Origin: a virus
DNA: 64,000 nt
Reading direction: 5' to 3' (one strand)
Virus record (IMG/VR): IMGVR_UViG_3300036864_000108
Span: 5,755-69,754 of that record
Position numbers and translations under genes: made by a program
Shown: positions 3,717-35,800 of the stretch, piece after piece
Layout: the number at the start of each line of letters is the position of its first letter
How positions within the stretch are numbered: position 1 is the first letter of the stretch
Notes under the pieces: generated by a model
The model's database searches: none
Seen by the model: the letters and a program-made list of their open reading frames with translations, nothing else
Told to the model about the DNA's origin: nothing

Positions 3717-3721
3717 TCTCG

Positions 3722-10138: not shown

Positions 10139-10410
10139 GATGCGCCCCCGTTTTGTTGCCGCAGGATGTGGCGGACTTCGTTGATGTGCCGTATCAGCGC
10201 GTCGCATTGGGTGGGTACGGCCCGCAGCCGCGGCCGGTCGGCCTGTTCGGTTTGCTGCCGGAAGTGTTCGCCGTACGTGAACCAGTACCGGGCTTCATCT
10301 TCGGCGAGCCGCAGTTCGGTGCGCAAACACCGCCATGTGTGCCACGCCCAGGCGGCTGCGGCGATGGTGGTGAGGGTGAGTGCGGCGTGGGCGAGCCGGC
10401 GGCGGGTCAT
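10135..10410 (-). CDS. Hypothetical membrane-anchored protein
   Basis: N-terminal hydrophobic stretch; coupled. Confidence 0.5.
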   Translation of the reverse strand: MTRRRLAHAALTLTTIAAAAWAWHTWRCLRTELRLAEDEARYWFTYGEHFRQQTEQADRPRLRAVPTQCDALIRHINEVRHILRQQNGGAS

Positions 10411-10628
10411 GACGTGCCGCGATTCACGAATGGTCGCAGGTCGAACACAGCCCATTGGTCGATCTGTGACATGCCGCGTGAACCGATGTGTTTCTCGGCA
10501 TGATCGTAGCAGCGCGGACCGAGTGCTTCGGGTGGGAACAGTTTCCCCCAAAGGATGAACTCGGCATGATGGATCGGGTCGCGGCCTTCGTCTCGGCACT
10601 CGCGGCAGAACTCCAGACGGTCACTCAC
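10407..10628 (-). CDS. Hypothetical protein
   Basis: MSDRLEFCREC...LWGKLFPPEALGPRCYDH. Confidence 0.5.
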   Translation of the reverse strand: MSDRLEFCRECRDEGRDPIHHAEFILWGKLFPPEALGPRCYDHAEKHIGSRGMSQIDQWAVFDLRPFVNRGTS

Positions 10629-10680
10629 CCGGCACCTCCCGCGGTGATCTGCAGTAGTGGCCGGCGTCGAGGAGCCGGGT

Positions 10681-10935
10681 TCACGGCGCACCCGCCTGCA
10701 TGCGCGCCAGTTCCAGGTCACGCATCGTGGACTGGAATGCGTGTGCGGCGTGGACGACGTCCTGGAGGTGCGCCAACTCGGTGTGATCGTGGGGGTTGCC
10801 GGGTTCGGTGATGGCGTTGAACTGGTGGCGCGTGTCGAGTGCCTCCACCATGCCGTCGAAGTCGACGTCGTCGAGGAGGATGATCGCGGTGATGATGTGC
10901 GCCAGATGTTCGTTTGCCTGTTCGCGGGTCATCAT
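10681..10935 (-). CDS. Hypothetical protein
   Basis: MMTREQANEHL...; coupled to upstream ORF. Confidence 0.5.
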   Translation of the reverse strand: MMTREQANEHLAHIITAIILLDDVDFDGMVEALDTRHQFNAITEPGNPHDHTELAHLQDVVHAAHAFQSTMRDLELARMQAGAP

Positions 10936-11123
10936 GATGTTTTCCCCCACTCTTTGCGGCGTTCCTCTTGGTACAGGCGCCGATATTCGGCCTGGTATTT
11001 GTATGCGAGGTTGAGGAGTGCGCGTTGCCGGGCGCGACCGTCGCGGCGCTGCCGTTCCGCGTAGTCGGGGTTCCGTTGCCGGTATTCCCGCATGTATTCG
11101 GCCTTGTCCGACGGCGCGGTCAT
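10932..11123 (-). CDS. Small basic hypothetical protein
   Basis: AEYMREYRQRNP...RARQRAL..LA..Y..EY..LY.EE. Confidence 0.55.
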   Translation of the reverse strand: MTAPSDKAEYMREYRQRNPDYAERQRRDGRARQRALLNLAYKYQAEYRRLYQEERRKEWGKTS

Positions 11124-11262
11124 CAGTCGCTGCTCCCGTTCGTGAAGTCGTAGGCGACACGGACGAGGGAGTTTTCTCGGTGCCAGGGGCATTCGTCGGC
11201 GGGCAGGTCGTACCAGGGGCATGACTCGTCGTGTTGCCCGCACGCGGCGGTGAGGACGGTCA

Positions 11263-11610
11263 TCACCCGTTCCTCCGCCCATACAACAAAGGCCGCAGCG
11301 CGAAATCCACGTCCTCGCAGATTCGGTGCAGGGCGGCCTCGTAGCCGTGGTCGTTGTCCGGGTACCGTTCGTCCACGTCGCATGGCGCGAGGTACCCGCA
11401 TTCCAAATCGCGGCGGCGTTCCACGGCTTCGGCGAGCGCCGCGAATTGGATGCCGGGTTCGTCCAAGGTGGGGTGGGCGATGATTCGGACGGCGGCTTGC
11501 AGGTCTTTCGGCTGCCAGTGTTCCCGCGTCTCGGCGAGGCCCAGCAGAGCACTTTCGGCCATGGCGGCGGGGAGGGCGGGCAGGGCGTTGGTGTGCCCGA
11601 CAGCGGTCAC
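11263..11610 (-). CDS. Hypothetical protein
   Basis: GTGA-coupled ORF. Confidence 0.45.
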   Translation of the reverse strand: MTAVGHTNALPALPAAMAESALLGLAETREHWQPKDLQAAVRIIAHPTLDEPGIQFAALAEAVERRRDLECGYLAPCDVDERYPDNDHGYEAALHRICEDVDFALRPLLYGRRNG

Positions 11611-12032
11611 GGCGTGCCGTCTTTCTCGGCTACCCATTCGTAGCCCGGCTGGATTCCCTGGCTGTTGCTGACGAACGACGGTGCCCACCCGGCGTTCACG
11701 AGCCGCAGCGCGGCCGCACGGTCAGAGAACATGCGGAGTCGTCCGACGAGGAAGTCAGCCAACTCCTCGGGCGTTGCGAACGATGGGGAGAGCGGCGTGC
11801 CCTCGGTGACGGTCTCGTACAGCTGGTAGCCGAGCGGCGTGCCCTCCGGCCATTTCGGCATGTACTCGGAGGGCTCGTCGTCGATGTCTTCCATGTACTC
11901 CCGTGGCAGCAGCGGCTCGAAGTGTCGGCCCTGCCCTGTCCAATCCCATTCGTTCGGCGGCCGCGCAGGATTGGGATGCAGGTCCAGTGGGTGTTCCCAT
12001 CCGACGGGGATGCGGCGAATCTCTCGTCCCAT
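11607..12032 (-). CDS. Hypothetical phage protein
   Basis: MGREIRRIPVGWEHP...YMPKWP....GYQLYETVTEGTPLSPSFATPEELA; RBS upstream. Confidence 0.65.
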   Translation of the reverse strand: MGREIRRIPVGWEHPLDLHPNPARPPNEWDWTGQGRHFEPLLPREYMEDIDDEPSEYMPKWPEGTPLGYQLYETVTEGTPLSPSFATPEELADFLVGRLRMFSDRAAALRLVNAGWAPSFVSNSQGIQPGYEWVAEKDGTP

Positions 12033-12033
12033 G

Positions 12034-12357
12034 TCAGTTGCCCCCATCCTGGTCGCGTCGTTGCATGAGTGGTCGTGTGGTGGCTCGGTCGATGAGTTCG
12101 CGGGCCTGCCGCTGGTGCGGTGACAGCGCCATCTGTGTGGTGAGCGCCCACCGCTGCGCAGCGTCGCGGGCCTCGGCGGCCTCAACGTGCCGAACGATGT
12201 GGTCGGCGATGGTCTGCGGTGGGTGCCCGGCGAGTACAGCGGCGGCAGCCAGGGTGGCGGCGAAGTCCCGGTCTGTGGCTGCGGCGACCGCGGCGAGCAC
12301 GTCGGGGGTGCGGCCGACGGCGCGGAGCAGCTGGTAGCCGGAAAGTTCGGCGGTCAC
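12034..12357 (-). CDS. Hypothetical protein
   Basis: Coupled ORF. Confidence 0.45.
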   Translation of the reverse strand: MTAELSGYQLLRAVGRTPDVLAAVAAATDRDFAATLAAAAVLAGHPPQTIADHIVRHVEAAEARDAAQRWALTTQMALSPHQRQARELIDRATTRPLMQRRDQDGGN

Positions 12358-12951: not shown

Positions 12952-13779
12952 TTAGAGCCGAATCCGCTTCGCCGAGTCGGCAGGTAGCCCACGGTTGTAC
13001 TGCTCCGCTACGACCTCGACGGCAGCCCGCACCGTTGAGACGCCGCGGGTGACGCTCAGCTCGACCTTCCGCTGCGCAGCCATAGCAGTGATCTGCTGCG
13101 CGGGAAGACCGCGGAGCTTGTCGTACAGCCGGTCCTCATCGACCTCGGACTTGCTGACGAAAACCTTGCTGAGCGCCTTCAGGAGCACGCTCTCCGGCCG
13201 CTCCTGATTGCCGTAGGCGCGCGCGTAGAATGTGAAGACGCGGGACAGGTGCTCCGGACCGCTGATCTCCACGTACTTGCGGCGTTCCGCGTCGCGCATG
13301 ATGGCGACACCTGCGGTGCGGTCCCGGAACGTGGAGTCTTCGGCGCGGTCGGCGACGAAGATGAACCCAGCGGACTGGGCGGCCATCTGAACATCGAGAG
13401 TGGCCTGGTCACCGGACGTCGCAAGGTTGCGGTCCCGATCGACTGCCGCCACACCAGCTCGGTCGTTGCGGCCCATGAACAGCCGCGCCTCGTCAGCCTT
13501 CGACAATCCCGCAAAGATCTCGCAGGTCACGGTGGAGACACCGTTGCCGTTAGCCCTCTTGGTGGCTTCGAGCCGATGCTGGCCGTCCAAGATGTACAGC
13601 CCGTCCTGACGCTCGGAGACGAGCAGTTCGCCGAGCAGGACGGGGGCGAAGTTGCCGATCAGCTTCCGCAGCCTCGCCGGGACGATCGCCCGCTGAACGG
13701 CGAGGTCCACCTTGACGTCGCTGACCGCGACATCAACCCCGTACTTGTGTTCCGTGTACTCGATGGGCTCCATGCCCAT
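12952..13779 (-). CDS. DGQHR-motif ParB-like protein (DUF6551-like)
   Basis: VDLAVQR...F...LLGELLVSER.DG.YILDGQHRLEA...GLS..DEA.LF...N. Confidence 0.75.
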   Translation of the reverse strand: MGMEPIEYTEHKYGVDVAVSDVKVDLAVQRAIVPARLRKLIGNFAPVLLGELLVSERQDGLYILDGQHRLEATKRANGNGVSTVTCEIFAGLSKADEARLFMGRNDRAGVAAVDRDRNLATSGDQATLDVQMAAQSAGFIFVADRAEDSTFRDRTAGVAIMRDAERRKYVEISGPEHLSRVFTFYARAYGNQERPESVLLKALSKVFVSKSEVDEDRLYDKLRGLPAQQITAMAAQRKVELSVTRGVSTVRAAVEVVAEQYNRGLPADSAKRIRL

Positions 13780-13787
13780 CTCCTCTC

Positions 13788-14696
13788 TTATTGCTGCTCC
13801 CTGACGGGAGATCCCCGCACTATGCGGGAAGCTTTCTCGGCGTCTTCAAGCTCTTTGAGCTTGGCGCCGAATTCTGCGACGAGGCCCCTCAGCTTTTTGA
13901 GGACAGATGGGAGCCGGAAGTCTGGGGCGATCAGTTTCTCGGCGCGGATAAGGTCCGCGTCCATGCCGGGGTCTTGCAGCGCCCGCGTGAGGGCGAGGAT
14001 GCATTCGCTCAGAGCCGCTTTGACGCGGTCTTGTGTCGCCAGGACTCGGGCGGGTGGCCTGGACACTTCGCGTACGGAGCCGCCGATGGCCTCATGCGAA
14101 GCGCGCCATACGGCTTCTTCGGCCTTCTGTTCGGCGCGTTTCGCGGCCTGCTTCGGCGCCGCCTTCGCGCGTTGCTTGGCGAGTTCCTCTTGTCGCTTGA
14201 TTTCTGGATCTGGCCGCAGCATGGGGGGCTTCGTCTTGGGCTTCCTAGCCTGATACGTCCTGCCATCCTCGCCAGTCCTGACGGAGTGTTGGGGAATTTC
14301 CCCAACACTCTCCATCTGGATTCGGACACGGCCGACGGTCTTATGATCACAGCCCACTAACCGGCCCACATGTCCGTCGGTGGCATCCGGCCGACGTAGC
14401 AGGTAACGCCTGATCGTTGCGCGCTTCTGGTCATTGGTTTGATGACGGCCGATGAGATTGAGCGCGAGGCTGGCGTCGAGCTTTTCGGCCTCGCTGAGTC
14501 CCGCAGGTAGTTGATGGATCGGGTATTCCGCCCCCGACTCTTCCGCGATCTGCTTGCGATGGTGTCCGTCGATCACCTCGCCGAACTCGTCCACGATCAC
14601 CGGCTGCAACACGCCGCGTTCGGCGATGTCCTCGCGGAGATCCGCATACTGCTGCTCGGTCAGCGGATCGAGGAGTTGGTACTTTGGCGCGTTCAT
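13788..14696 (-). CDS. ParB N-terminal domain protein with HTH
   Basis: PLTEQQYADLREDIAERGVLQPVIVDE...IDGHHR...N..GRH...IGRLVGCDHKTVGRVR-type HTH. Confidence 0.8.
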   Translation of the reverse strand: MNAPKYQLLDPLTEQQYADLREDIAERGVLQPVIVDEFGEVIDGHHRKQIAEESGAEYPIHQLPAGLSEAEKLDASLALNLIGRHQTNDQKRATIRRYLLRRPDATDGHVGRLVGCDHKTVGRVRIQMESVGEIPQHSVRTGEDGRTYQARKPKTKPPMLRPDPEIKRQEELAKQRAKAAPKQAAKRAEQKAEEAVWRASHEAIGGSVREVSRPPARVLATQDRVKAALSECILALTRALQDPGMDADLIRAEKLIAPDFRLPSVLKKLRGLVAEFGAKLKELEDAEKASRIVRGSPVREQQ

Positions 14697-15152: not shown

Positions 15153-15395
15153 CTACGCCACGGCCTCGCCCGAGTCGTCGGTGATGCCGTACGCGATGAG
15201 TCCCTGGTCGACGGCGACAAGGAGCCAGTCGACGATGCGGCGGGCGATCGCGGGGGACGGCTGCTTCAGCCCTGTCTCGATGTGGGATAGGTAGCTCGCG
15301 GCGATGTCGACGCCGTCGGCAAGCTCAGCCCGACTGATCTGGAGGATTTCTCGGATGGCTCGGACCTTGGGTCCGTTGAGCCTTGTGGCGTCCAT
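15153..15395 (-). CDS. Cro-like XRE HTH regulator (probably leaderless)
   Basis: LNGPKVRAIREILQISRAELADGVDIAASYLSHIETGLKQPS; divergent from the repressor. Confidence 0.85.
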   Translation of the reverse strand: MDATRLNGPKVRAIREILQISRAELADGVDIAASYLSHIETGLKQPSPAIARRIVDWLLVAVDQGLIAYGITDDSGEAVA

Positions 15396-15551
15396 GTCGG
15401 CAAGAGTAGGCAAGGTTCGGCAGGAGTGTCAACAGGAATCTTCGTGTACAAGCTAGAGTCGGCAGGAATCTGGCAACATCTGCCGACAGTGACCCGCCGA
15501 CTTACGGCAAGGGTTGCGGAAGTTGACGACTCTTCTGCCATCATGTGCTTC
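15396..15551. promoter_or_regulatory. Genetic switch: leftward promoter and repeated operator half-sites
   Basis: Minus strand TTGACA-N18-TACTCT-N7-ATG(cro); repeated (TC)GGCA(A/G)G units about 10-11 bp apart; inverted repeat GTCGGCAG..CTGCCGAC at 15458-15487. Confidence 0.75.
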
Positions 15552-15992
15552 GTGACTGACCGTGACGTGACGCAGGTGGGCGCGCTTGTAGCCACTCGGC
15601 GCGGTGAACTGGGTTTGACTCAGCAGGAGCTAGCCGACGCAGCGAACGTCGCTGTCGGCACCGTGGTCGCTCTCGAGAGTGGACGTCGCTGGCCTCAGGC
15701 CGCGAAACGGTCCGCGATCGAACGGGCGCTGCGCTGGGCGAGCGGTGACCTGGTGCGGCTCCGGAACGGCGGTACCGCAACATCACTACCGCAGCGGGTC
15801 GACCTGGGGCACGGCATCACGGTCGACGTGGACGAGGAGACCGACCCGGAAGCGTTGCGCCGGTCGCTTGCGCTGGCGCTGAACGAGGACATCACCTGGG
15901 AAGACGCAATGGACAAACTGGACGCGATCGCGGATCTGCATGGGGAGCTGCGGGCGATCCTGCGGAAGCTGCGTCCCCCGAACGGCGGTTGA
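15552..15992 (+). CDS. Immunity repressor (XRE HTH)
   Basis: RRGELGLTQQELADAANVAVGTVVALESGRRWP....RSAIERALRW; start GTG at 15552 is inferred. Confidence 0.85.
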   Translation: MTDRDVTQVGALVATRRGELGLTQQELADAANVAVGTVVALESGRRWPQAAKRSAIERALRWASGDLVRLRNGGTATSLPQRVDLGHGITVDVDEETDPEALRRSLALALNEDITWEDAMDKLDAIADLHGELRAILRKLRPPNGG

Positions 15993-16981: not shown

Positions 16982-17241
16982 CTGGTTGTGACGTCCACGA
17001 AGACTTCATCGTCATCGACGCCGTAGGTCTTGCCGTACGCCTGCCGCGCAATCCGCTTTGCATCTGCGGCGTTGTCGGCTGCGATCCAGTACTCGTGGCG
17101 CGGGTAGTCCCAACCGGAGCAAACGGCGTGGTAGTTGCCGTTCAGGTCCATGCGGGGTGTGTCAAGCGTGGTGGCCATGGGGCCGCCTCCTTCCTTGGGG
17201 TTGTGGCTGGGGGTGACGACGGCCTCGATGTGCAGGTTCAT
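16978..17241 (-). CDS. Hypothetical protein (alternative start 17178, MATTLDT)
   Basis: Coupled ATG at 17241 plus an internal strong RBS and ATG. Confidence 0.55.
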   Translation of the reverse strand: MNLHIEAVVTPSHNPKEGGGPMATTLDTPRMDLNGNYHAVCSGWDYPRHEYWIAADNAADAKRIARQAYGKTYGVDDDEVFVDVTTR

Positions 17242-17381
17242 GAGATGACCTCCTGGATCAAGTGATCGCAGTGGCAGGCATCTAGCTTTTGGACGCCTGC
17301 GAGCCAGTGCTCAGCGGCATCTCGTGTGGGGAATGGGCGGGACGTGTAGTCGTCGCAGACGACTACGTACCGGGCGCTCAT
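17238..17381 (-). CDS. 47-aa Cys-containing protein
   Basis: Manual translation MSARYVVVCDDYTSRPFPTRDAAEHWL...CHCDH; ATGA-coupled both sides. Confidence 0.55.
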   Translation of the reverse strand: MSARYVVVCDDYTSRPFPTRDAAEHWLAGVQKLDACHCDHLIQEVIS

Positions 17382-17659
17382 GAGAGCGCCCGGGTGGTCT
17401 CAAGAACCGTCCCGTACTGAGAGACGATACGGACGGACCGGAAGATGGTCGCCTCGTCGGCGGCCACGTTGCGCAGCCACTCGGGGGTGGTGCCGCTGGC
17501 GACGGAGGTCCAGCGCCCGTCCTGGCGGACCTGCACGTAGGCGGTGAAGGGCAGGACACCGGAGACGGTGTGGGTGTCGAGTGTGGTGGCCATGGGGCCA
17601 CCCCCTTTCGGGGTTGTGGCCGGGGCGGTTCCCCGGCCAGGGTATGTTGTCTGCGTCAT
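17378..17659 (-). CDS. Hypothetical protein (leaderless start 17659; alternative start 17593, MATTLDT)
   Basis: ATG 7 nt after the -10 box; internal RBS and ATG. Confidence 0.55.
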   Translation of the reverse strand: MTQTTYPGRGTAPATTPKGGGPMATTLDTHTVSGVLPFTAYVQVRQDGRWTSVASGTTPEWLRNVAADEATIFRSVRIVSQYGTVLETTRALS

Positions 17660-17666
17660 GTAGACA

Positions 17667-17695
17667 ACGATAGGGCACCCAGCCACCCCTGTCAA
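17667..17695 (-). promoter_or_regulatory. Housekeeping-sigma promoter
   Basis: TTGACA-N17-TATCGT-N7-ATG. Confidence 0.8.
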
Positions 17696-17713
17696 GACTC
17701 GGCGACAAAGTTT

Positions 17714-19129
17714 CTAACGCCAGTCGACCTGGAGTCGGTGCGGGTTGAACCTGCGCGGCCCCTCGTGTGGTCGCACCCTGATCGCGGCGAACAGGCCGCG
17801 GGCAGCGATCCGCTTCTGCTCCGCCGTGAACCGGTCCCACCGCGCGGCGATGTCGTCACCTTCAAGGTTGCGGAGCAGCCTGGGCGGGTGGGCCAACTTC
17901 CGGCGCGCCACCGCCAACCTGCCCTCGATCGGGCGGCGGGCCTCGATCCACTCGGCGAACCCAATCAGCCGCTCCCCGTGCGCCCGGGCCAGGTCGCGGA
18001 GCTGTCGCTCGTCAGCGGCCATCTCCGCGCGCACAGCCTCGATGGCCGGGTCGGGGGTGGTGTCGCGGAGCCGCTGCCACGCCGCCGGGTCCGACGCCCA
18101 CGCGACGATCAACCGACCCACATGCTCATGCACCGGCTCAGCGTTGATCGCGATCCGCCCGCACCCGCCGAGATGCTTGGCGCATACGTAGCGTCGCTTC
18201 CCTTCGCGGGCCTGACCGGCGGAGAAGCCTTTCAGGGCGTGCCGGCACAGCCCGCAGCGGAGCGTCCCGGACAGCCAGTAGACGAGCCCGATGCGGTCGC
18301 TGCTCGCACGGTCGGCGAGGACCGCGCACAGCTCCTCCCACACGTCCCGGTCCAGGATGGCGGGCCACACAGCCTGCCCGATGATCCGCTTCTGGTGGGT
18401 GCGCAGCCCGGCGACCCTCGGCTTCGTCACGGCCGCCTTCAGCGCCCGGTCGGTCCACGGGCCGCCCTGCACCGTGGGGACTCCACGCTGGTTGAGATCC
18501 TTGACGATCCGGTAGAGGGGGTCACCGGCGAGGATCTTCGTGGCGGACTCAAGGATCACCTGCGCCTCACTGTCGTCGACGGTGACCCGGTCGTTCTTGT
18601 ATCCGTAGGGGCGGATGCCGCCGCCGCCGTACTTCCCTTCGGCGGCGAGATCCTCGTGTTTGCGTCGCACCCGCCTCGCCGTGTCACGGCTGGACTTGTT
18701 GTTCATGGCGGTGACGACCCTGGCCATCGCCACGCCCGCGTCGGTCGACAGATCGAGGCTGCCAGTGACCGCACGGTTGGGGATCAAATGCTGCTCCACC
18801 ACGTCGATCAGGTCCTCAAGGTCCCGCATGTCGCGGACGCACCGGTCAATGTCGTAGACGATCAGACCGTCGCGGTGACCGGAGTCAAGGTCGTCCAGTA
18901 GCCGCCGGAACTCGGGGCGGACCACACGTTTCGCCTTGCGACCGTCCGGGAGGACGATTTGGCGGCGCCGGTAGGCGGACACGTTCTGCTCGACGTACAC
19001 CTCGGCGATGCCCCAGCCGATGGCGGCGCCGAGTGACCGGCCGTCTTTCTCCTGCCGGTCCACACCCGCCAGGTCGTCGTCGCGGGCGTCGGACATGCGG
19101 ACGAGCAGTGCGGCGCGTCGCGGGGTCAC
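17714..19129 (-). CDS. int: Large serine recombinase (integrase)
   Basis: ALLVRMSD, GV.RQ, E.NVSA, RPEF..LL, YDIDR..R, PYGY, recombinase domain, LSG.LRCGLC zinc ribbon, coiled coil. Confidence 0.95.
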   Translation of the reverse strand: MTPRRAALLVRMSDARDDDLAGVDRQEKDGRSLGAAIGWGIAEVYVEQNVSAYRRRQIVLPDGRKAKRVVRPEFRRLLDDLDSGHRDGLIVYDIDRCVRDMRDLEDLIDVVEQHLIPNRAVTGSLDLSTDAGVAMARVVTAMNNKSSRDTARRVRRKHEDLAAEGKYGGGGIRPYGYKNDRVTVDDSEAQVILESATKILAGDPLYRIVKDLNQRGVPTVQGGPWTDRALKAAVTKPRVAGLRTHQKRIIGQAVWPAILDRDVWEELCAVLADRASSDRIGLVYWLSGTLRCGLCRHALKGFSAGQAREGKRRYVCAKHLGGCGRIAINAEPVHEHVGRLIVAWASDPAAWQRLRDTTPDPAIEAVRAEMAADERQLRDLARAHGERLIGFAEWIEARRPIEGRLAVARRKLAHPPRLLRNLEGDDIAARWDRFTAEQKRIAARGLFAAIRVRPHEGPRRFNPHRLQVDWR

Positions 19130-19201
19130 GCTCCGCTATGGTAGTCGTAACGTAGCGTCGGGCCGCGTACTCCACTGATGGCATACACAGGGTTGGCATA
19201 T
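19130..19201. other. Candidate attP / divergent promoter region
   Basis: AT-richer gap 5' of int with only weak dyad symmetry (catacac..atatatg); call is mainly positional. Confidence 0.3.
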
Positions 19202-19996
19202 ATGAGTCCAAGACGGACAACGGGACTGGTCGCCGCCGCCCGTGTCGTCATCACGACGGTCGCCGCGGTCGCCGCGATCATCGCCTCGTTTGTGTTCCTC
19301 CGCGGTCTGGCCGCCAGCACGGGTTGGCCTGGGTGGACTGGGTTGCTGTTACCGATGTCGGTGGATGCGCTCGCCGCGTCAGCGTGGCTCACCTACTGGA
19401 TCAGCGAGCCGGGGCAGCGTCGGTTCGCTGGGTGGGTGGGTGCGGCCGCCACCACCGCGAGCCTGGCTGGTAACGCCTTGTCGCATCTGCTTGTGACCGG
19501 GCAAGTCCACGCCGGATGGTTCCTGGTCGCCGTTGTGGGTTCGGTCCCAGCAGTGTCGCTGGCGCTGGTCGTGAAGATGGCGGTACCGGATCAGCCTGGC
19601 CCGGTATCACTGCGAGTGGAGGGTAGTACCAAACTCGCTACAAACTCGGCGCCGCGGGTTGGGCCCGGCGGTTCCGGGGCCGCAGCGGATGGACCGGATC
19701 GCACTGTGGGGGTCGACGGGTCCGGGACCGCCGGTACCAGCAACAGTGACAGCCCGGACCTGGTGCCGGTCAAGACCCCCGGTCAGCCGGTACCAGTACC
19801 CGTCGAGGTCCCCCCGCCTCCGAGTGCTGGTACCGGCGCCAGTGAGGCGGCGCTGTTGAACCGGTTCCTGGCCTCCGGGCGGGTACCGACGGTCGCGAAC
19901 GTGCAGGACGTGTGCGAGGTGTCCCGCCGTCAGGCCCTCAAGTTGGCCCCCCAGTTCAAGACCGTCATCGGTTCCGGTAACGGTCACGGCGAGTAG
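19202..19996 (+). CDS. DUF2637 / Spd-like membrane protein with C-terminal HTH
   Basis: Four TM helices: A.IASF..L..LA...G....LLP.SVD....SLAGNA.SH....VGSVPAVSL; Pro-rich linker; C-terminal PTVANVQDVCEVSRRQA. Confidence 0.8.
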   Translation: MSPRRTTGLVAAARVVITTVAAVAAIIASFVFLRGLAASTGWPGWTGLLLPMSVDALAASAWLTYWISEPGQRRFAGWVGAAATTASLAGNALSHLLVTGQVHAGWFLVAVVGSVPAVSLALVVKMAVPDQPGPVSLRVEGSTKLATNSAPRVGPGGSGAAADGPDRTVGVDGSGTAGTSNSDSPDLVPVKTPGQPVPVPVEVPPPPSAGTGASEAALLNRFLASGRVPTVANVQDVCEVSRRQALKLAPQFKTVIGSGNGHGE

Positions 19997-20010
19997 GGAG
20001 GGCGGACGAC

Positions 20011-20199
20011 ATGCCGTTCGGGTTCCGCAAATCGTGGCGGTTCGGGTCCCGCAACCTGCACCTGCGGTTGAACGCGTCCAGGAGCGGCGCGTCCTGGACG
20101 CTGAAGGTGGGGCCGTGGTCGTGGAACACAAGGCAGCGTCGGCACCGGGTTGATCTGCCGGGTCCCGCGTACTGGCAGTCACGGGGGCGTCGGCGGTGA
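20011..20199 (+). CDS. DUF4236-like small basic protein
   Basis: MPFGFRKS.RFG...RLNASRSGASW..KVGP..WN.......DLPGP.YW. Confidence 0.75.
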   Translation: MPFGFRKSWRFGSRNLHLRLNASRSGASWTLKVGPWSWNTRQRRHRVDLPGPAYWQSRGRRR

Positions 20200-20672
20200 C
20201 CGTGCTCACGTCGCGGCGTCACCGGCTGCCCAAGGGTGTGACCGTCGATGACCTGGACTTGCGTTGGCTGATCCCGCGTCACCGTGACCAGTTGGCAGCG
20301 GGGAAATTGCGGGTCCCGGATCAGGCGAACCACTTCCGGGACGGACACCCGGCCACGTTGGTCAGCGTCCCGGACGGGTTCGGTTGCCCCGTCGCGTGGA
20401 TCGACGTGGAGATCGCCGAGCTGATCTGGCGGCTGAACCGGGTTGGTGTCGACACTTTGGAGTGCTGCCAGGGAGGCGGGTACGACGTTTGGGGTGGTCG
20501 CGGTTCGGCGTACATCGCGTTCCCCGGTCCCACCCAGTGCAACCGCTTCCTCGCCCTCGCCGAGGATGCGCTGCGCGGTGAGGAAGTCGAACGCAGCTAT
20601 GGCCGGTCCCGTGTCGTCCGGTTCCCACACTCGCAGGTGCGCCGGATCACCCGGACAGTGAGGAACGCCTAG
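20196..20672 (+). CDS. Hypothetical protein
   Basis: IDVEIAELIWRLNRVGVDTLECCQG....AYIAF; coupled. Confidence 0.6.
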   Translation: MTVLTSRRHRLPKGVTVDDLDLRWLIPRHRDQLAAGKLRVPDQANHFRDGHPATLVSVPDGFGCPVAWIDVEIAELIWRLNRVGVDTLECCQGGGYDVWGGRGSAYIAFPGPTQCNRFLALAEDALRGEEVERSYGRSRVVRFPHSQVRRITRTVRNA

Positions 20673-20675
20673 CCG

Positions 20676-22658
20676 ATGGCCCGCCGCCTGGGTACCACGG
20701 TGCGCCGCGCCTCCACCGACGCGCGCACCGGCAGACATCCGCGCCCCTCACCGGAGGTGGGCCCGTTCGTCGCCCTCGCCGTGCTGGCGGTCCCCGCCGG
20801 GTTTGGGCTGCACTACGCGTGGGGCCGGACCCTGCCTGACGCGGCGGTCGCGGCGTCCGCGGTCAGCTTGGCCACCGTCGGCTTGTTCACGTTGACGGCG
20901 GTGCATGCGAGGCCCCGCCCGACGGTGCAACGTTGGCAGGCCGCCGGGTCAGTTGGGGTGTCGGGGGCTGTGTTGCTGCTGCTGCTGATCGTCGGCTGGT
21001 CGTGGTCCGCCCTGTCCGTCGCCGGGTTCGCGGTGGCGGTGAACACGGCCGCGTGGCTGCTGTTCCGGTCCAACGTGGTCCGCGGCGACGGTACCGACGA
21101 GCAGGAGGCGGGGGAGGACCGCACCGCCGTGGCGCTCGGTATCGAGGGGGCGAAGGCGCGGAAGGTCCACGAGGACGACGACAAGGTCGTCACGAAGATT
21201 CGGCCCGCGCTCGGCCAGTCACACAAGGACGTGCAGAAGATCGCGGAACCGTTGGCGACAGCCACACATGCGCCGGTCGGCGGGGTCCGGGTCCCCGTCA
21301 ACCCGGCCGACGCGGGGGACATCACCGTCGTCCGCATGAAACGCGACGTGCTCCACGACACCATCCTGTGGCCCGGCCCATCCAACCTTGGCGGCACGTT
21401 CGCCGATCCGCTGGAGGTGGGGCGGCGGGAGGATGGCACGGTCGCCCGCCTATGGTTCCCCGGCCGGCACACACGTTCCGGCACCCACCTGCTGATCATG
21501 GGCATGTCCGGGTCGGGTAAAGGCGAGTCGTTCCGGGTCACCGCCGCTGAGATCATGACCCGCCGGGATGTCCTTTTTTGGCTGATCGACTATGCGAAAC
21601 CGTGGCAGACCGCCCGCGGCATCGTCGGCGGGCTCGACCTGTTCGCCACCAGCAAAGCGGACGCCGGCCAGGTGATCGCGCATCTGCGGAAGTTCATCCC
21701 GTACCGGTCCCGGAAGCTGGGGCAGGCCGGGTGGGACCAGTGGGACGAGGACTGCCCCGTCCCCGCGATCGTCGTGTGGATCGAGGAGGCCGCGGAACTG
21801 TTCGCCGCCGACGAGCAGTGGGTGGAGCATCTGCCGCGGCTGGCTGAGCAGTGCCGTTCGGTGGGCGTGTTCCTCGTCTACTCGATTCAGCGGGCGCACT
21901 CCGCGAACATGGACACGAACGTCCGCGCCCAGCTCGGCGCCGGCTGGTGTTTCGGCGTCGATGGTGGCCGGGACGCCGAGTTCTGCCTGTCCCCCGTCAC
22001 CCTCGCGGCTGGCGCGGACCCGTCGTGGGGTAACAAGCGGGTCGGGTACGCCTACCTTGAGGCCCCGGGTATTGACGAGCAGGACTGGTCGCAGAAGATG
22101 CGCGGCTACCTCGCCAAACATGAGCAGCTAGTGGAGACGGTCGCGTCGGCTACTGACATCCGCTGCCCCGGTCTGCCCCCCGACGAGGCGGCGTTCTGGG
22201 GTGACATCTACACACGGTTGCACACCATCCAGTCCAATCCATCGGAGGCCCTGGTGCCCATCGAAGACCTCGCTGACGAGGACGGCTACGACGACACGAT
22301 CGTCCCGGTCGACCCGGAGTTGAAAGACGAAATCGACCCGTCGGAGCCGATCCTCCCGTATGACCCGGCGCGGGACGGCCCGGACATCGAGTTCCCGGAG
22401 CTCGTGTTCGACCCGAAGGAGTTGACGGCGGAGGAGGTGCGGGACGAGTTCGACAAGATGCTGCGGAAGTTGGCCGAGGAGGGGATCACCACAGTCAACA
22501 CGGTACTGCTGATGGAGCGGTGGCCGTACCGGAAACGCCCGTGGATTTCCAAGCAGATGAAGCGGCTGGAGAAGGCCGGTCAGGTGGAGCGGTACCAGGA
22601 ACGCCCGTTCGCGGAGGCTGAGTGGCGGCTGGTAGCCCTAGTGAGCGCCGCGCAGTGA
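20676..22658 (+). CDS. traB: TraB-type FtsK/SpoIIIE conjugative dsDNA translocase
   Basis: N-terminal TM helices; HLLIMGMSGSGKG (Walker A); IVVWIEEA (Walker B); RSVGV.LV.S.QRA; AGADPSWGNKRVGYAYL..PG; C-terminal wHTH RKRPWISKQMKRL as in Streptomyces plasmid TraB. Confidence 0.9.
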   Translation: MARRLGTTVRRASTDARTGRHPRPSPEVGPFVALAVLAVPAGFGLHYAWGRTLPDAAVAASAVSLATVGLFTLTAVHARPRPTVQRWQAAGSVGVSGAVLLLLLIVGWSWSALSVAGFAVAVNTAAWLLFRSNVVRGDGTDEQEAGEDRTAVALGIEGAKARKVHEDDDKVVTKIRPALGQSHKDVQKIAEPLATATHAPVGGVRVPVNPADAGDITVVRMKRDVLHDTILWPGPSNLGGTFADPLEVGRREDGTVARLWFPGRHTRSGTHLLIMGMSGSGKGESFRVTAAEIMTRRDVLFWLIDYAKPWQTARGIVGGLDLFATSKADAGQVIAHLRKFIPYRSRKLGQAGWDQWDEDCPVPAIVVWIEEAAELFAADEQWVEHLPRLAEQCRSVGVFLVYSIQRAHSANMDTNVRAQLGAGWCFGVDGGRDAEFCLSPVTLAAGADPSWGNKRVGYAYLEAPGIDEQDWSQKMRGYLAKHEQLVETVASATDIRCPGLPPDEAAFWGDIYTRLHTIQSNPSEALVPIEDLADEDGYDDTIVPVDPELKDEIDPSEPILPYDPARDGPDIEFPELVFDPKELTAEEVRDEFDKMLRKLAEEGITTVNTVLLMERWPYRKRPWISKQMKRLEKAGQVERYQERPFAEAEWRLVALVSAAQ

Positions 22659-22700
22659 GGGGCTGGGGAGGTTTCTACGTCCCCGTAGGGGACGGGGGGC

Positions 22701-22788
22701 GGAACACGGGGCGGAACACGGTGCGGAATACGAGGGGAACGCGGGCCGGAACGCGACGGAACACGGTAAGGAACACGGACGGAACACG
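22701..22788 (+). repeat. Array of eight 8-bp direct repeats, putative clt / TraB recognition sequences
   Basis: GGAACACG at 22701, 22713, 22758, 22770, 22781; GGAATACG at 22725; GGAACGCG at 22736, 22748; spacing 10-12 bp; just 3' of traB. Confidence 0.85.
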
Positions 22789-22803
22789 ACGACAGGAGAG
22801 GTC

Positions 22804-23151
22804 ATGACCGACGTTTCGATCTTCGACACCGAATTGAAGCGCACCTCGGACTACCTGGAGTACTTGGAGAAGCTGCGGCATCACGGGAAGGACTTGGCGG
22901 ATGCGATCAACACGACGGCGGGGCTGCTGGAGTTGAAGCTGCGGGCGCATGTCCGTGCGAACTCGGGCAGGTACGGCGGCGCGAACGCGTACAACACGGC
23001 CCGGCTGGCGATGAAGCCGGTGAAGCATGCGGGCGGGTCGGCGCAGGAGATCGCGAATTCGGCGCGCGCCGCGTTGATCATCTATCAGCGTCGGATCGTG
23101 ACCCCGTACATGGAGGAGCCGGTCAAGTCACCATTCGACGTCGAACACTGA
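22804..23151 (+). CDS. TraA-like plasmid transfer accessory protein
   Basis: Helical 115 aa, A..TARLAMKPVKHA......A; position next to traB; RBS CAGGAGAGG. Confidence 0.55.
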   Translation: MTDVSIFDTELKRTSDYLEYLEKLRHHGKDLADAINTTAGLLELKLRAHVRANSGRYGGANAYNTARLAMKPVKHAGGSAQEIANSARAALIIYQRRIVTPYMEEPVKSPFDVEH

Positions 23152-23195
23152 CGTAGCCGTCTGTGTCTGGCGCGTGTCATGCTGGAGACTGAACT

Positions 23196-23501
23196 GTGAG
23201 CGAGGACAAGACCATGGACGTGCAAGCCGAGTGGGACGGCCAGCCCTTCGCCGACCTGCGCACCACTGGCCTGTTGTGGCTGATCAACGCCAGCGTGTTC
23301 CACCCCCGCGGCTACGCCTTGGCGTTGCATTCCGACGAATCCGGGGACTGCGTCGGCTGGTCACTGCTAGGCGACGGGTCCGAACCGTGGACGTTCCCGG
23401 ATGACTGCGACGCCGAGTTCACTGCCGCGTCCCGCCTATTCGCAGGCCCTGAACCGGGGACCGCTGCGACGTCGAAGCCCGCGGGTTCCTCGCCGAGTTG
23501 A
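23196..23501 (+). CDS. Hypothetical protein
   Basis: LRTTGLLWLINASVFHPRGYALAL......GW.LLGDG.EPW.F. Confidence 0.65.
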   Translation: MSEDKTMDVQAEWDGQPFADLRTTGLLWLINASVFHPRGYALALHSDESGDCVGWSLLGDGSEPWTFPDDCDAEFTAASRLFAGPEPGTAATSKPAGSSPS

Positions 23502-23525
23502 CCAACCGCAGGTGGGAGGTTCGCT

Positions 23526-23876
23526 GTGCGTGAGTTGGAGCGGGAGCACGCCCGCCTGTCGGCTGCCCGGGCGTTGGGGGAACGGCATCCGCATTGGTAT
23601 CTGCATCGCGGCATGGTGTGGTGGGTCGTGTTCAGCGCGGCGGTGATCGGCGCTGTGTTGTGGGCGGGACGTGAGGGCGCCGCGGTGCTGGCCCGGGTGG
23701 ACGCCCCGTCGATGCCCCGCCTGTCGCTGCCGGACTTGCCGGGTGTGCCGTGGCTGACCGTGGCCTGGGTAGTCGCGGTGCTTGCGGTGGTCGGGCTGGC
23801 GGTGTGGTTGTGGCACCGCCGGTCCTACGGGTTGCCGTGGCGGTACCGGCTGCGACGCCTGTTCCGGCGGTACTGA
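23526..23876 (+). CDS. Two-TM membrane protein
   Basis: Two hydrophobic helices, basic C-terminus, RBS GGAGG. Confidence 0.6.
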   Translation: MRELEREHARLSAARALGERHPHWYLHRGMVWWVVFSAAVIGAVLWAGREGAAVLARVDAPSMPRLSLPDLPGVPWLTVAWVVAVLAVVGLAVWLWHRRSYGLPWRYRLRRLFRRY

Positions 23877-23888
23877 CCCCCAGACACG

Positions 23889-23927
23889 AAAAACGCCGCC
23901 GCTCCCCCCGAGGGGAGCGGCGGCGTA
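23889..23927 (-). terminator. Intrinsic (likely bidirectional) terminator between converging transfer and lysis units
   Basis: ACGCCGCCGCTCCCC-ccga-GGGGAGCGGCGGCGT with a T-run on the minus strand. Confidence 0.85.
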
Positions 23928-23955
23928 ATGACCCGCCAGAAGGGCGTGGCCGAGT

Positions 23956-24252
23956 CTAGCGGGGCGGCGGCCCAGGGTCGTCGATGACCCCACCCAAGTC
24001 GCGGACGCCTTTTTCGAACCGGCCGATCCGGTGCGGCGGCAGCGTCGGCGGCGCGTTGCTTTTCGTCAGGTACCCGGCTGCCCATGCCACCGCACCGACC
24101 AGGGCGGCGGCCAGCGCCGGGTCCAGTGTGTAGCCGAGCGCGTCGGCGACGAGGACGAGGATGGTGGCGGCGACACCGGTGATCCCGGTGGCGGCCATTT
24201 TGCGGGTGGGCGCGGCCGACGGCTGACTCACCTTCCGGTGGGTGCTCACCAC
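23956..24252 (-). CDS. Holin
   Basis: QPSAAPTRKMAA, two TM helices, ..AGYLTK; last gene of the lysis unit. Confidence 0.7.
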   Translation of the reverse strand: MVSTHRKVSQPSAAPTRKMAATGITGVAATILVLVADALGYTLDPALAAALVGAVAWAAGYLTKSNAPPTLPPHRIGRFEKGVRDLGGVIDDPGPPPR

Positions 24253-24422
24253 GTTGTCAGCCGAAGTCGCATATTGGGGCTGTGCGTCACGTCGGGGCCG
24301 TGAACGCAGCCGGCGTGCGGGGGCCGGTCGTCGAACTGGACGGGTTGGCCTTCGTCGATCACCCGGTCGATGTTCTCATCGGGGGTGTCGGGCTCGTCAA
24401 ACTCGTCGGTCGGCCCGGTCAT
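24246..24422 (-). CDS. Small acidic protein in lysis cassette
   Basis: Manual translation MTGPTDEFDEPDTPDENIDRVIDEG...; coupled both sides. Confidence 0.45.
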   Translation of the reverse strand: MTGPTDEFDEPDTPDENIDRVIDEGQPVQFDDRPPHAGCVHGPDVTHSPNMRLRLTTW

Positions 24423-24916
24423 GCGACGCCTCGTCTCGCCGCCTCGTCGTTTGTCGCCACCGAGATGCGGGCAACGTCAGCGTCGGACAGCCCAGCCAGC
24501 CCCTTGTCGAGGAGAGCCTGCGCCAACGCGGCCTCGTCCACGTCCCCGGCCGGCTGGGCGGCGAGCGCGTCCAGTTTCGCGCCGAGGCCAGTCAGGTCCG
24601 GCGCGCCCGCCTTGACGATCGCAGCTGCGGACGTCTTCAGTGCGTCGAGCTCGGCCTGGGTGATCTGGGTGGTGGTGTCGTGCGCGATGTGCGCCTTCCG
24701 TAGCGCGTTCAGGACGGCCATGCTGGACAGGCCGTACACCAGTCCGGGGCCGACGAGGTACTGGTTGGCGTTGCCGGTGACTTGCACGCAGGCCAACCTG
24801 GGGCCGTGGGTTGCTGCCACGATTTCCCTCCTGATCGCCGCGACGAGGGTGGTGAGCATCCACTGCTGGTCGGCCGTGTTGAGGGTCATGGGCGTGATTG
24901 CTTCGGGTGCCGTCAA
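24419..24916 (-). CDS. Non-catalytic endolysin C-terminal-like / scaffold subunit
   Basis: N-terminal TLNTADQQWML helix; helical C-terminus DVDEAALAQAL....LSDADVARI..A..DE.ARR resembling actinophage lysin tails. Confidence 0.6.
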   Translation of the reverse strand: MTAPEAITPMTLNTADQQWMLTTLVAAIRREIVAATHGPRLACVQVTGNANQYLVGPGLVYGLSSMAVLNALRKAHIAHDTTTQITQAELDALKTSAAAIVKAGAPDLTGLGAKLDALAAQPAGDVDEAALAQALLDKGLAGLSDADVARISVATNDEAARRGVA

Positions 24917-24929
24917 CGTGTGCCTCCTG

Positions 24930-25448
24930 TCAGGTGACTGCGGTGGGGGCGAACGTGCCGGTCAGCCACGCCTTGTCGGCGCCGGTCAGCGACCGGGGCG
25001 GCGGGGTGAACGGGAACCGTGCCCACGAGGGGCGGGGATGGTAGTCGCGGCCCATGCGGGCGAGCCCGTCGTAACCGGCGTCGTAGAACTGCACCTGTTC
25101 CTGCGCCGCACCGGCGAGACCGGGTTCGTCGCGGACGATCACATGGATGTGGGGGTCGAACCCGCCGTGCGCAGCGTCGCGGTACCAGGCGGGGCCGCCG
25201 CAGCGGCGACGCAGCTCCACAACGAGCGGTTCGATTTTGGCGGCGGGGAGGTTCCAGGTGCGCAGGTCCGCGGCCCCGCCACCGGAGTGTGTGCCGGCGC
25301 TCGCCGAACCGGAAGCCCAGGAGCCTTGGACGACGACGATGACGGCCGGGTCGATTCCGGCTGCGGCGGCTGCGGCGTCGATGATCGCGTTCACCCGGCG
25401 GGTGACGGTCCCCAGGTTGCGGGTGACCCGCTCACCGGCCCAGGTCAT
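24930..25448 (-). CDS. Endolysin catalytic subunit, M15-like zinc peptidase
   Basis: QGSW....SAGTHSGGGAADL...AWYR.....FDPHIH; Q...YDAGYDGL. Confidence 0.8.
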   Translation of the reverse strand: MTWAGERVTRNLGTVTRRVNAIIDAAAAAAGIDPAVIVVVQGSWASGSASAGTHSGGGAADLRTWNLPAAKIEPLVVELRRRCGGPAWYRDAAHGGFDPHIHVIVRDEPGLAGAAQEQVQFYDAGYDGLARMGRDYHPRPSWARFPFTPPPRSLTGADKAWLTGTFAPTAVT

Positions 25449-32896: not shown

Positions 32897-35800
32897 TCAG
32901 CCGGCCTTCGGTAGGCGACGCTGCCTGCGCAGGTCCTCAAGCGCCCTCACCAGGTCGTTCTTGTCCCCGACGTAGTTGTCGAAGTGGTAGTGGTGATGCA
33001 CGGTCGCACCGGTGCCGCCTCGGTTCTTGTGGGCGGGGATGACAGCCTCACCACGGTGCAACTGGTACATGCCGGTGCGGGGCACGAATGGGGTGCCGCG
33101 TTGGAAGCTGCTCCTGACCAGGGTGTAATCCTCAACCCACTTGAAGCCTCGTGGTGCCCCCGGTAGGCCATGTGTGCGGGCGTATGCGAACCGTTTCGAG
33201 TCCGGTTCGAGGTTGGAGATCTGCCATGCGCTCAACCGTCGCGGCGCTGCGGGACGCACCCTGGTCGCGGGACGCGGTGGCGCCTTCCGCCGCTTCGGGT
33301 AGAGACGACGCAGATTAGCCTGATCGAACCCAGTCGGGTAAGAGAACCCTTGGTAACGCGGGTACATGATCGAGTCACGGCGTCCCGTGTGATTCAACCC
33401 GAGCACATGCCCCAATTCGTGCATCGCGGCCATGCGGCGGTGCCTACCGGACAGGCGTTTGCCGCTGTTCAACGCGACCTGGCTGCCGTTGGTGATTCCC
33501 ACCCAACCGGCGGCCGGCTTGTTGACAACCTCCACGGTGACCTGACTACGCAACGGCCCCCGACCGCCCAGGAACCGGACGTCGGCGATCCTGCTCCAGG
33601 CGCGTATCGCTTCCGGGACACTCCAGTTGCGCCACAGACCGTACACCCACGCCCGGCGGGTTTTCCGTAGGCGACCCAGCCAGCCGAGCGGGTCCCGCGT
33701 CTGCGCACGCTCCGCGACATTCGACACTTGGGCGACGGTGAGAGCACGTCCTCTGTCGAGGACGGAGACGAGCCGCTCGAACGCCCCCGTTTGCCGCGGC
33801 GACAGGACCCGCTCCGGTTCAGGTGTGCGCTTCGGGATGTCACCCTGACCGCGTGCAACACCGCCCTTGTCGTACCAGTGCGGTGACCGGTTCCGCCACG
33901 CCCCGTAAGCGTTACCCGGGTTGCCGTACCGGTCGGAGATGTACCGCAGACCGGCCCAAATCTGCCTGCCCGCGTCAGGTTCCCGCGCCCCGATACCGTA
34001 CGCCCGCGCCGTGGATGCCAGGAACTGGGGGATGCCCCAAGCCGTGGACGTGGGATTGTCGGCGCGGGGGTTCCACCCTGATTCGCCCTGCCACAGGGCG
34101 TACAACGCTTGCCATTGGGCGCCGGTCCAGCCGCGGGCGGCAGCCATCTGCCGGCCCAACGCCACCGCGCCGCCGCGGGACATCGCGGCCGCGTCCGGCG
34201 ACCCGGCGAACGAGATCGCGTTCGCGGCATTGGTCTTCGCGTCCTGCCCGCGCAGCCACTCCAACACCTGGTTGATCGCCTTACCGCCCATGCCCGACAG
34301 GACGCCGCGGAACCCGCCCGTGCCGATCGTCTTCGCGAGAAGCCGCTTCAACGGGCCCAGCACCAGCCCCGCCGCCCCCGCCACCGCGGATCGGATGAAC
34401 TGCCCGAGACGCCCCGCGTTCGACACCGTCCCCGCGCCGCTAAGCCACGACAACGGATTCACGGAGGCGCCCCTGCCGGTGGTCACCTCGAAATGAAGGT
34501 GCGGCCCGGTGGTGTTCCCGGTGTTCCCGGACCAGCCGATCCGGTTCCCGGCGTCCAGCCGCTGCCCGATCTTGGCGAGGAACCCGTTCAGGTGCGCGTA
34601 CAGGGTGTTGTAGCCGTCGTGGGACATGCGGATGTGTTTGCCGTACGAGTCACGCATCGACCGAATGGAGGACACGACCCCGGCCATCGCAGCCCGCACC
34701 GGTGTCCCCACGGGGACACCCCAGTCGACCGCCGGGTGCCCAGAGCTGTAGCCCTGCGTGACCGGTGCGCGGCCCACCGGGTACACCCGGCCACCAACGG
34801 CGAACCGTTGCGCCCCACGGTTCAGGTCTTCCATGAAGTCGTAGCCGAACTGCTGCGCCTTCTTCTTTCGGATCACGAACTCGCCCGGCTCCAACAACGC
34901 TGGTACCCGGTCGCCGACACCCTGACCCGGGACTTTTCCGCCGCGGGCGAACTTTATGGGAATCTCATCGACGAGATTCTTCCCGCCGGTGAACGGGCGG
35001 GCGAACCTGTTGACGTTCCCGATGATGTGATTGTTGATGAACTTCAGAAAACCGCGGACCACATTCATGATCGGGGCGACGACACGGGCATTGACGAACC
35101 CGCCCAGCCCACGGCCCACCGCACCAATCCCGTCCGCGAGGCCGTGGACGATGTTCCGCCCAGCTTGGACCAGCCACCTGCCGGCGGTGCGGAACGGTGA
35201 CGTGACCGTGGAGATCACCCGACCAGCGATCCGCGCCGCCGACCCGAGCATGCTGCCGACACCCCGGACCAGCCCAGACACGGTTTGGACACCCCGACCG
35301 ACCAGCCACGACACGGCGGTACGGAACGGCAACGTCAAGACAGAGATCACCCGGGCAGCAATACGCACAACTGTGCCGAGCACACCGTTGATGCCCCGCA
35401 CCAGACCGGCCACGAACTGGACGCCACGGCCGATGAGCCACCCCGCGGCGCGGGCGAACGGCTTCAACATCTTCGCGATCAGCTCACCGATCCTCGCGAC
35501 GACAGCGCCGATACGTGAGGCGATCGCCGTGGCGAGGCCCTGCATCATCTTCAGCGCACGCGCCCGGATCTCCAACGCGATCAGACCCAGCCGCGTCGGC
35601 AGTATCGACAGTTCCTCTGCGAAACGCTTGCCGATGCCGGGGAAGACGCGGCGGAACCCTTCGAGGAACGCCTTCCCAAGGAACCCGAGGGCCCGGCCGA
35701 CCATGCCGACCAGACCGTTGGCGAACTTCTTGAACGCCAGCAGCGCCCAGGCGAGCAGCGGCCCGACGAGCGGGATCTTCGCGAACAGTCTGGCGACGGC

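Follow-up and report, generated by a model that had tools for sequence, protein, structure and literature searches.

TraB and its clt locus make up a one-protein system for conjugation of double-stranded DNA, found in Streptomyces plasmids and AICEs. Every TraB recognizes an 8-bp word specific to it, and experiments have defined few of these words. In FtsK, the gamma domain, a C-terminal winged helix, reads polar 8-bp KOPS on the chromosome and so sets loading and direction. The locus described here lies in a stretch of 64,000 nucleotides (the window) from the virus record IMGVR_UViG_3300036864_000108. It resembles FtsK gamma and KOPS in pairing a predicted winged helix at the C terminus of an FtsK-type motor with an oriented 8-bp word, but KOPS are spread over the chromosome, whereas the words in the window form one tight local array. 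The recognition word of pSVH1 is presumably unrelated to that of the window. pSVH1 TraB and its 8-bp TraB recognition sequences were reportedly the subject of a 2011 study by Vogelmann et al. in EMBO J, and the Streptomyces plasmid-phage pZL12, or phiZL12, is said to have been described by Zhong et al. in J Bacteriol in 2010.

TraB forms a hexameric pore, and helix alpha-3 of its C-terminal wHTH binds repeated 8-bp motifs, according to section 2.2.2 of PMC10191066 and to PMC4447253. For pSVH1, a membrane-associated FtsK-like hexameric pump is described, with alpha-3 reading the 8-bp words of clt (PMC3583192, PMC4170104, PMC10191066). This protein served as the mechanistic model for the TraB of the window, which, unlike it, has a GKG Walker A motif and is encoded by a phage. 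The clt repeats of pJV1 are reported to be of the CCGCACA type (PMC3583192; also PMC4447253). Like the window, pJV1 has eight to nine direct repeats a few bases past the traB stop and on the traB strand, spaced by 12, 12, 11, and 13, and its TraB helix is the closest in type (WVSKQMSRM in pJV1 versus WISKQMKRL). The two words are unequal (CGGAACAC versus CCGCACAC), with six of eight positions in common when aligned on ACAC. Unlike the window, the pJV1 clt has an additional, tighter group of four copies at 8 to 10 bp; its carrier is an 11-kb plasmid rather than a tailed phage of roughly 70 kb, and the two TraBs are about 30% identical. For pWTY27, Wang et al. (2012) described TGACACC repeats that are footprinted by TraA and required in cis for transfer, and a truncated translocase was reported to bind and footprint them (PMC3583192). 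As in the window, these repeats adjoin traB, spanning the 3' end of the tra gene and about 160 bp beyond it, but the word is another one, the helix is SRPWVSARLKD, the repeats are fewer and less regular, and the carrier is a plasmid.

In the window, eight direct copies of GGAAYRCG follow a traB-like ORF on the same strand (Table 1), the first beginning 43 bp past the last base of the stop codon. A pattern scan of the window placed the copies at 22701, 22713, 22725, 22736, 22748, 22758, 22770, and 22781, giving start-to-start spacings of 12, 12, 11, 12, 10, 12, and 11 bp with a mean of 11.4 bp. The variant GGAACACG accounts for five copies, GGAACGCG for two, and GGAATACG for one. A sequence-only reading of this DNA had given the same number of copies, variants, spacings, and distance from the stop, and the pattern scan and the ORF list agree with it exactly. 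In six of the eight copies the preceding base is C, and the 9-base form CGGAACACG is therefore a better spelling of the word. Judged from the sequence comparisons below, the array is probably the clt that belongs to this divergent TraB, and its word was found beside no other lineage's TraB among the fetched loci. The word is new, the kind of site is known, and the unusual part is the vehicle, a temperate tailed phage.

The array is not a product of chance. Tandem Repeats Finder reported a period of 12 with 8.1 copies and a score of 81. The 64-kb window contains 33 matches to GGAAYRCG, compared with a mean of 16.9 and a maximum of 29 in shuffled sequences, and the 25 matches outside the array are spread across both strands. 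From the match counts, about 0.017 matches are expected per 88 bp of single strand, which puts the chance of eight at the order of 1e-19. Likewise, the most frequent 8-mer (one mismatch or less) in a 250-bp stretch reached 8 copies, compared with maxima of 5 in one set of 40 shuffles and 6 in another of 30. No second cluster was found across the 69,754-bp contig with a position matrix built from the eight copies.

Table 1. Features of the locus and its surroundings, with positions in the window
Feature	Position	Strand	Basis or remark
Divergent HTH_3 pair: 86 aa on the - strand (Cro-like), 188 aa on the + strand (CI-like)	15153..15992		
Large serine integrase, diverging from the transfer block	17714..19129	-	Pfam Resolvase, Recombinase, Zn_ribbon_recom; phrog_95, 3.4e-79
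DUF2637 membrane protein, candidate spread/transfer partner, first gene of the block	19178..19996	+	Pfam PF10935, 1.4e-5; two hydrophobic segments
158-aa ORF without family match, ending 4 nt before traB	20196..20672	+	Place held by traA in pJV1 and pWTY27
TraB-family FtsK/SpoIIIE-like dsDNA translocase, 660 aa (P0001)	20676..22658	+	NF041214, PHROG, hydropathy
Predicted TraB helix 3, RPWISKQMKRLEKA, residues 621 to 634	22536..22577	+	AlphaFold model of residues 561 to 660
Hairpin CGTCCCC GTA GGGGACG, 7-bp stem, 3-nt loop	22678..22694	+	Minimum-energy and centroid folds
Octamer array, candidate clt / TraB recognition repeats	22701..22788	+	Eight direct GGAAYRCG, consensus CGGAACACG, spacing 10 to 12 bp
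115-aa soluble helical protein, no family assigned	22804..23151	+	Ribosome-binding site AGGAGAGG 5 nt past the last octamer
101-aa ORF, phrog_3954 (function not known)	23196..23501	+	PHROG match; missing from L030
116-aa protein, two hydrophobic segments, last gene of the block; Spd-like by position only	23526..23876	+	82% identical in L030
Strong terminator-like hairpin, 15-bp stem	23893..23926		Closes the + block against converging - strand genes

The protein encoded ahead of the array, P0001, has four hydrophobic N-terminal segments by hydropathy (residues 27 to 129), a motor domain, and a modelled C-terminal winged helix. It matched NCBIfam plasmid_TraB (NF041214) with an E value of 1.7e-114 and 383.7 bits over residues 25 to 643 of 660 and model positions 7 to 627 of 639. 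This score is below the equivalog cut-off of 800 bits, and the protein was therefore filed as a divergent TraB-family relative rather than a plasmid-TraB equivalog. It also matched phrog_24831 (2.5e-74) and FtsK/SpoIIIE-like PHROGs; the match to Pfam FtsK_SpoIIIE was weak, and the solved structures matched by its sequence were FtsK motors, at weak E values only (0.29 to 0.58). Identity to the TraBs of 51 plasmid records, pJV1 and pWTY27 included, did not exceed 34%, while the closest full-length relative in the protein collections (P0002) was 51% identical. A representative library held 678 relatives at an E value of 0.001 or lower. Single-protein locus searches returned nothing, and alignment-based searches had to be used instead; one relative is a metagenome fragment, L030, carrying a TraB 98% identical to P0001.

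The Walker B region of P0001, VVWIEEA, is conserved. Its Walker A motif is GMSGSGKG (window positions 21477 to 21500, residues about 268 to 283), with G where GK(S/T) is usual. Among 115 homologues in which the motif was matched, the position after the lysine was S or T in 109 and G in 6. As the G is common to P0001 and P0002, it appears to be a conserved trait of the lineage and not a fresh lesion, although the GKG motif may mean that the ATPase activity of P0001 is altered. Compared with L030, traB showed 53 synonymous and 7 non-synonymous codon differences in 294 codons; by this measure the gene is under strong purifying selection, and its ORF is intact. The suggestion that the module is still functional fits the 53:7 ratio, and the unusual Walker A motif is a caveat to it.

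An AlphaFold model of residues 561 to 660, built on a 36-row alignment, predicted a winged helix with the order H-E-H-H-E-E and a core pLDDT of about 90. The structural matches listed for it were all winged-helix DNA binders, with Foldseek E values of 1e-3 to 3e-2 and a best VIA match of Z 9.2 (rmsd 1.8 Å over 71 residues). FtsK gamma was absent from the Foldseek and VIA matches listed, and P0001 had no match to Pfam FtsK_gamma (PF09397) at an E value of 0.01 or lower. The C terminus would work like a gamma domain but is not classed as PF09397. In P0007, a 774-aa TraB relative, a precomputed Pfam match places FtsK_gamma (PF09397) ahead of the protein's own C-terminal winged helix, and this relative may have two DNA-reading domains.

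Evidence on what is conserved in the array came from L030, which forms one lineage with the window. L030 retains all eight octamers and every spacing. Substitutions between the two were found at 2 of 64 octamer positions and at 6 of 24 spacer positions (Fisher p = 0.0046), and both octamer differences fall in the third copy, which was already deviant. The rate of change in the spacers is close to the share of traB codons with a synonymous difference (53/294). The spacers thus change roughly as fast as synonymous sites and the words are retained, which shows that selection acts on the word itself. In addition, a 1-nt deletion immediately upstream of the array in L030 shifts every ORF that overlaps it. 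The sequence-only reading had argued that the spacing preserves no reading frame and that selection is on DNA, and had held that conservation of a peptide instead of the octamer in homologous loci would speak against a clt. In the homologous locus it is the DNA octamer that is kept and the frames that are shifted, so both points came out in favor of that argument.

The position of the array was then compared across TraB loci. Thirty-four loci were included, comprising the window, 1 genome locus, 11 viral contigs, 4 plasmids, and 17 metagenome contigs; L008, L040, and L053 had been dropped as duplicates, L034, L051, and L049 because they had no downstream DNA, and L055 to L108 as weak motor-only matches; L041, L042, and L052 were also left out. 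Between -20 and +230 of the traB stop, an array was called where the copies exceeded those of every one of 30 shuffles. As a benchmark, the same motif finder returned nine CCGCACA-type repeats directly after pJV1 traB, with the spacing 12, 12, 11, 13, and, in pWTY27, the TGACACC repeats where traB ends. The traB stop was followed by a significant array in 17 of the 34 loci, whereas of 156 control windows placed elsewhere in these loci only 6 had one. With the other 17 loci lacking a significant array after the stop, the position is common rather than universal.

The spacings in these arrays were most often 12 bp (24 times), followed by 11 (15 times), 10 (12 times), and 13 (11 times). Among the 68 spacings no longer than 15 bp, 62 fell between 10 and 13 bp. 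With a mode of 12, the spacing in the window is the family norm and not helical-repeat phasing. The original description of the array as roughly helically phased is imprecise, in that the mean of 11.4 bp is not 10.5 bp and corresponds to the norm of about 12 bp in the TraB family.

The word was also found to vary with the helix. Over 15 loci with significant arrays, the similarity of helices and the similarity of words were correlated with a Mantel r of 0.37, a value reached by 7 of 5,000 permutations, with kinship not removed; L007, which has no helix anchor, and L030 were left out. The three helices nearest to that of the window, those of L046, L009, and pJV1, also belong to the three nearest words. 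Covariation of helix and octamer in homologues, proposed from the sequence alone as a check, was thus observed, with shared ancestry still contained in the correlation. Taken together, the position after traB, the 17 of 34 loci, the conservation in L030, the covariation, and the winged-helix model support the array as a candidate cognate clt for the helix RPWISKQMKRLEKA, as had been proposed.

Two loci of this survey differ in other respects. In L031 (3616 to 3760), the word after traB, GGTGTGCGC, resembles the pJV1-type word only on the opposite strand, so the orientation of the array relative to traB is not universal. In L006 (IMGVR_UViG_3300030515_000009, 9923 to 12035), a viral contig of 35% G+C, a TraB relative with 27% identity is followed past its stop by seven TTGTCACC-type repeats; the layout of TraB plus array may therefore reach beyond high-GC actinomycetes.

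The transfer block of the window extends from 19178 to 23876 and consists of the DUF2637 protein, the 158-aa ORF, TraB, the array, and three small ORFs. It is the only long block on the + strand, a strand that it has in common with the CI-like gene. Homologues of the DUF2637 protein are encoded directly upstream of traB in L032 and L011. GC across the module was 0.64 to 0.71, compared with 0.664 for the contig; a nested AICE or recent foreign insert was considered, and base composition shows no sign of one. In L030 the genes for the 115-aa and 116-aa proteins are adjacent, which amounts to a one-gene indel (the 101-aa ORF) inside the block. Just ahead of the array is a short hairpin. In L030 two of its stem pairs differ in both partners, one being A-T instead of G-C and the other C-G instead of T-A. 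The hairpin may be a terminator without a U-tract or an inverted-repeat part of clt; published clt loci are reported to have an inverted-repeat element as well (PMC3583192, discussion). The region from 22650 to 22810 folded no better than shuffles (z = -0.43), with the short hairpin alone standing out, and no structured RNA was found there.

The array could instead be an operator or leader for the genes at 22804 to 23876, read by a regulator other than TraB, for example the 115-aa protein as an autoregulator or a repressor of the Kor type. The layout favors such a role, in that 5 nt separate the last octamer from the ribosome-binding site of the 115-aa ORF and the 108 bp from the hairpin to this gene are occupied by the array, and SpdA2 of pIJ101 is reported to bind a site near traB (PMC4170104). 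However, a homologue of the 115-aa protein was found only in L030 among 116 fetched loci (the two genes differ by 13 synonymous and 4 non-synonymous codons), yet arrays follow traB in 17 of 34 loci, and the word tracks the TraB helix. Nor was a GntR- or Kor-type regulator detected among the module ORFs with Pfam and NCBIfam, or a sigma-70-like promoter between 19000 and 24500 in a scan that excludes actinomycete promoter types, and eight direct, non-palindromic copies would be unusual for a dimeric repressor. An operator read by another protein is therefore considered unlikely. Because the entire leader of the gene that follows is taken up by the array, regulatory and loading roles are inseparable here.

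Still less probable is that the array represents replication iterons or a partition centromere for the ParB-like proteins of the phage, with the adjacency of traB being incidental. Direct repeats 10 to 12 bp apart are typical of iterons, the RepA protein of pWTY27 is reported to bind 8-bp iterons (PMC3583192), and the phage encodes two ParB-like proteins and a primase/polymerase. The same octamer also occurs in iteron-like arrays without TraB. When viral contigs and 401 actinomycete-class genomes were probed with a triple-octamer pattern, it was found in 11 unrelated viral contigs (L019 to L029) and in 5 of the 401 genomes (L110 to L114), while a reversed control pattern gave 0 in the genomes. 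These loci contain tandem GGAACACG arrays with 10- to 12-bp spacing in unrelated elements of 0.31 to 0.69 G+C. Some of the arrays come after a terminator or a tRNA-like stretch, and two of the five genome matches resemble 12-bp coding repeats. No TraB relative was found within the 1.5 to 2 kb fetched around the 11 contig and 5 genome arrays, and hence no second lineage with both the word and TraB among them. The TraB-less arrays are probably sites of other DNA-binding proteins, and word and spacing alone are therefore not TraB-specific. Against iterons or a centromere in the window, however, the ParB-like genes are about 8 kb away from the array and the primase/polymerase gene about 21 kb, the layout accompanies traB on such different backbones as pJV1, pWTY27, the linear plasmid pRL1, and phage contigs, and the word co-varies with the TraB helix.

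A neutral tandem duplication by 12-bp slippage, or part of a small repeat-peptide gene, would fit the 12-bp period from Tandem Repeats Finder and the ORFs of 61 to 117 aa that overlap the array on both strands, but is scarcely credible with the octamers held while the spacers change at about the synonymous rate, equal copy number in both relatives, an RNA fold no better than shuffles, and the frames shifted by the upstream deletion in L030. The peptide reading was rejected, as the spacings of 10, 11, and 12 break every frame.

The candidate clt is carried by a virus record of 69,754 bp, probably from a soil metagenome. Among sequencing runs, one DNA run, probably of the source sample, was listed as containing this sequence, and no RNA run was. 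By PHROGs and Pfam, its virion genes include a large terminase, portal, head protease, major head protein, head-tail adaptor, and a 1,539-aa tape measure. Further genes encode a peptidase, an Lsr2-like protein, an HNH endonuclease, and the two ParB-like proteins (12952 to 14696), and those for replication and modification comprise DNA methyltransferases, an exonuclease, and a primase/polymerase. Judged by gene content, the carrier is a complete-looking temperate tailed phage rather than a plasmid or AICE, a context that the sequence-only reading had missed. Its terminase shares no more than 36% identity with its counterparts in Gordonia, Rhodococcus, and Arthrobacter phages, which points to an actinomycete as the host. 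In 50,697 GenBank phage records, tblastn gave no match to TraB at an E value of 1e-5 or lower, and megablast gave no match to window positions 17000 to 27000; records near the window were perhaps excluded from both searches. Within the tape measure (32897 to 37516, - strand), peptidase (residues about 919 to 1030) and transglycosylase-like (about 1119 to 1215) segments were observed.

An AICE is defined by integrase, replication, and Tra functions without virion genes. The element in the window has an integrase and TraB, but virion genes are present, which makes it a phage carrying an AICE-like module. A plasmid-phage of the pZL12 type is defined by tailed-phage genes plus a tra gene of the Streptomyces type, and this combination was found here. 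pZL12 is reported to combine tailed-phage particle genes with transfer through a major tra gene and adjacent genes (PMC3583192; also cited in PMC5431353) and to be kept as a plasmid with ParA/ParB (PMC4487206), and is thus a published precedent for a phage with Streptomyces-type tra. Unlike pZL12, a plasmid with ParA/ParB, the window element has a serine integrase and a CI/Cro pair, which suggests integration. No account of a repeat-array clt in pZL12 was found in the passages that cite it.

If the array is the docking site of the phage TraB, the phage genome could move between cells like a conjugative plasmid. We infer that TraB binds the word, loads as a ring, and transfers the phage genome between cells. 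In this mechanism, the C-terminal winged helix of TraB would read CGGAACACG through helix 3 (RPWISKQMKRLEKA), and the eight copies in the same direction, about 12 bp apart, would allow several TraB subunits to load next to one another. Their motor domains, anchored in the membrane, would then close as a ring around the phage DNA and pump it directionally across the membrane into a neighboring cell or hyphal compartment, with the DUF2637 and 116-aa membrane proteins perhaps assisting. Given a docking site on the phage genome, the cargo would be phage DNA, excised or replicating, or DNA beside the prophage. More tentatively, the phage may have two routes of spread, one through virions and one through virion-free transfer of double-stranded DNA (its genome or host DNA adjacent to the prophage) by its own TraB at a private CGGAACACG array. 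Transcription together with the CI-like repressor would make the module active in lysogens; considering the recurrence in unrelated viral contigs, this might be a general strategy of actinomycete phages, but as a whole we hold this proposal to be somewhat less probable than not.

FtsK-like genes have been described in Cluster J mycobacteriophages and in Streptomyces phages, with their role given as not known (PMC3706429, PMC13587820). A docking array beside such a gene provides a concrete hypothesis, namely the virion-independent spread of phage DNA. The locus also adds a clean pair of helix and word, RPWISKQMKRLEKA and CGGAACACG, in which natural variation shows selection on the word. No description of a phage-borne TraB/clt was found in the open-access main texts searched, beyond the citations of pZL12.

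TraB relatives located about 5 to 6 kb or less from terminase, portal, or head genes were found on the viral contigs L003, L004, L005, and L008, and significant arrays were found in L004, L005, and L007, the last being identical to L008 across the stretch. In L008 (187 to 3198, - strand), one 1,003-aa ORF matched PHROGs for portal (53 to 396), head maturation protease (426 to 581), and major head protein (420 to 910), and represents either a fused portal-protease-capsid gene or an artefact of assembly or ORF calling. The RefSeq record of pWTY27 (L014, NC_013667.2) contains at 3710 to 4083 a gene annotated as "phage major capsid protein," about 0.8 kb downstream of traB and clt. This annotation is either a misannotation or a hint of phage-plasmid mixing in a classical conjugative plasmid.
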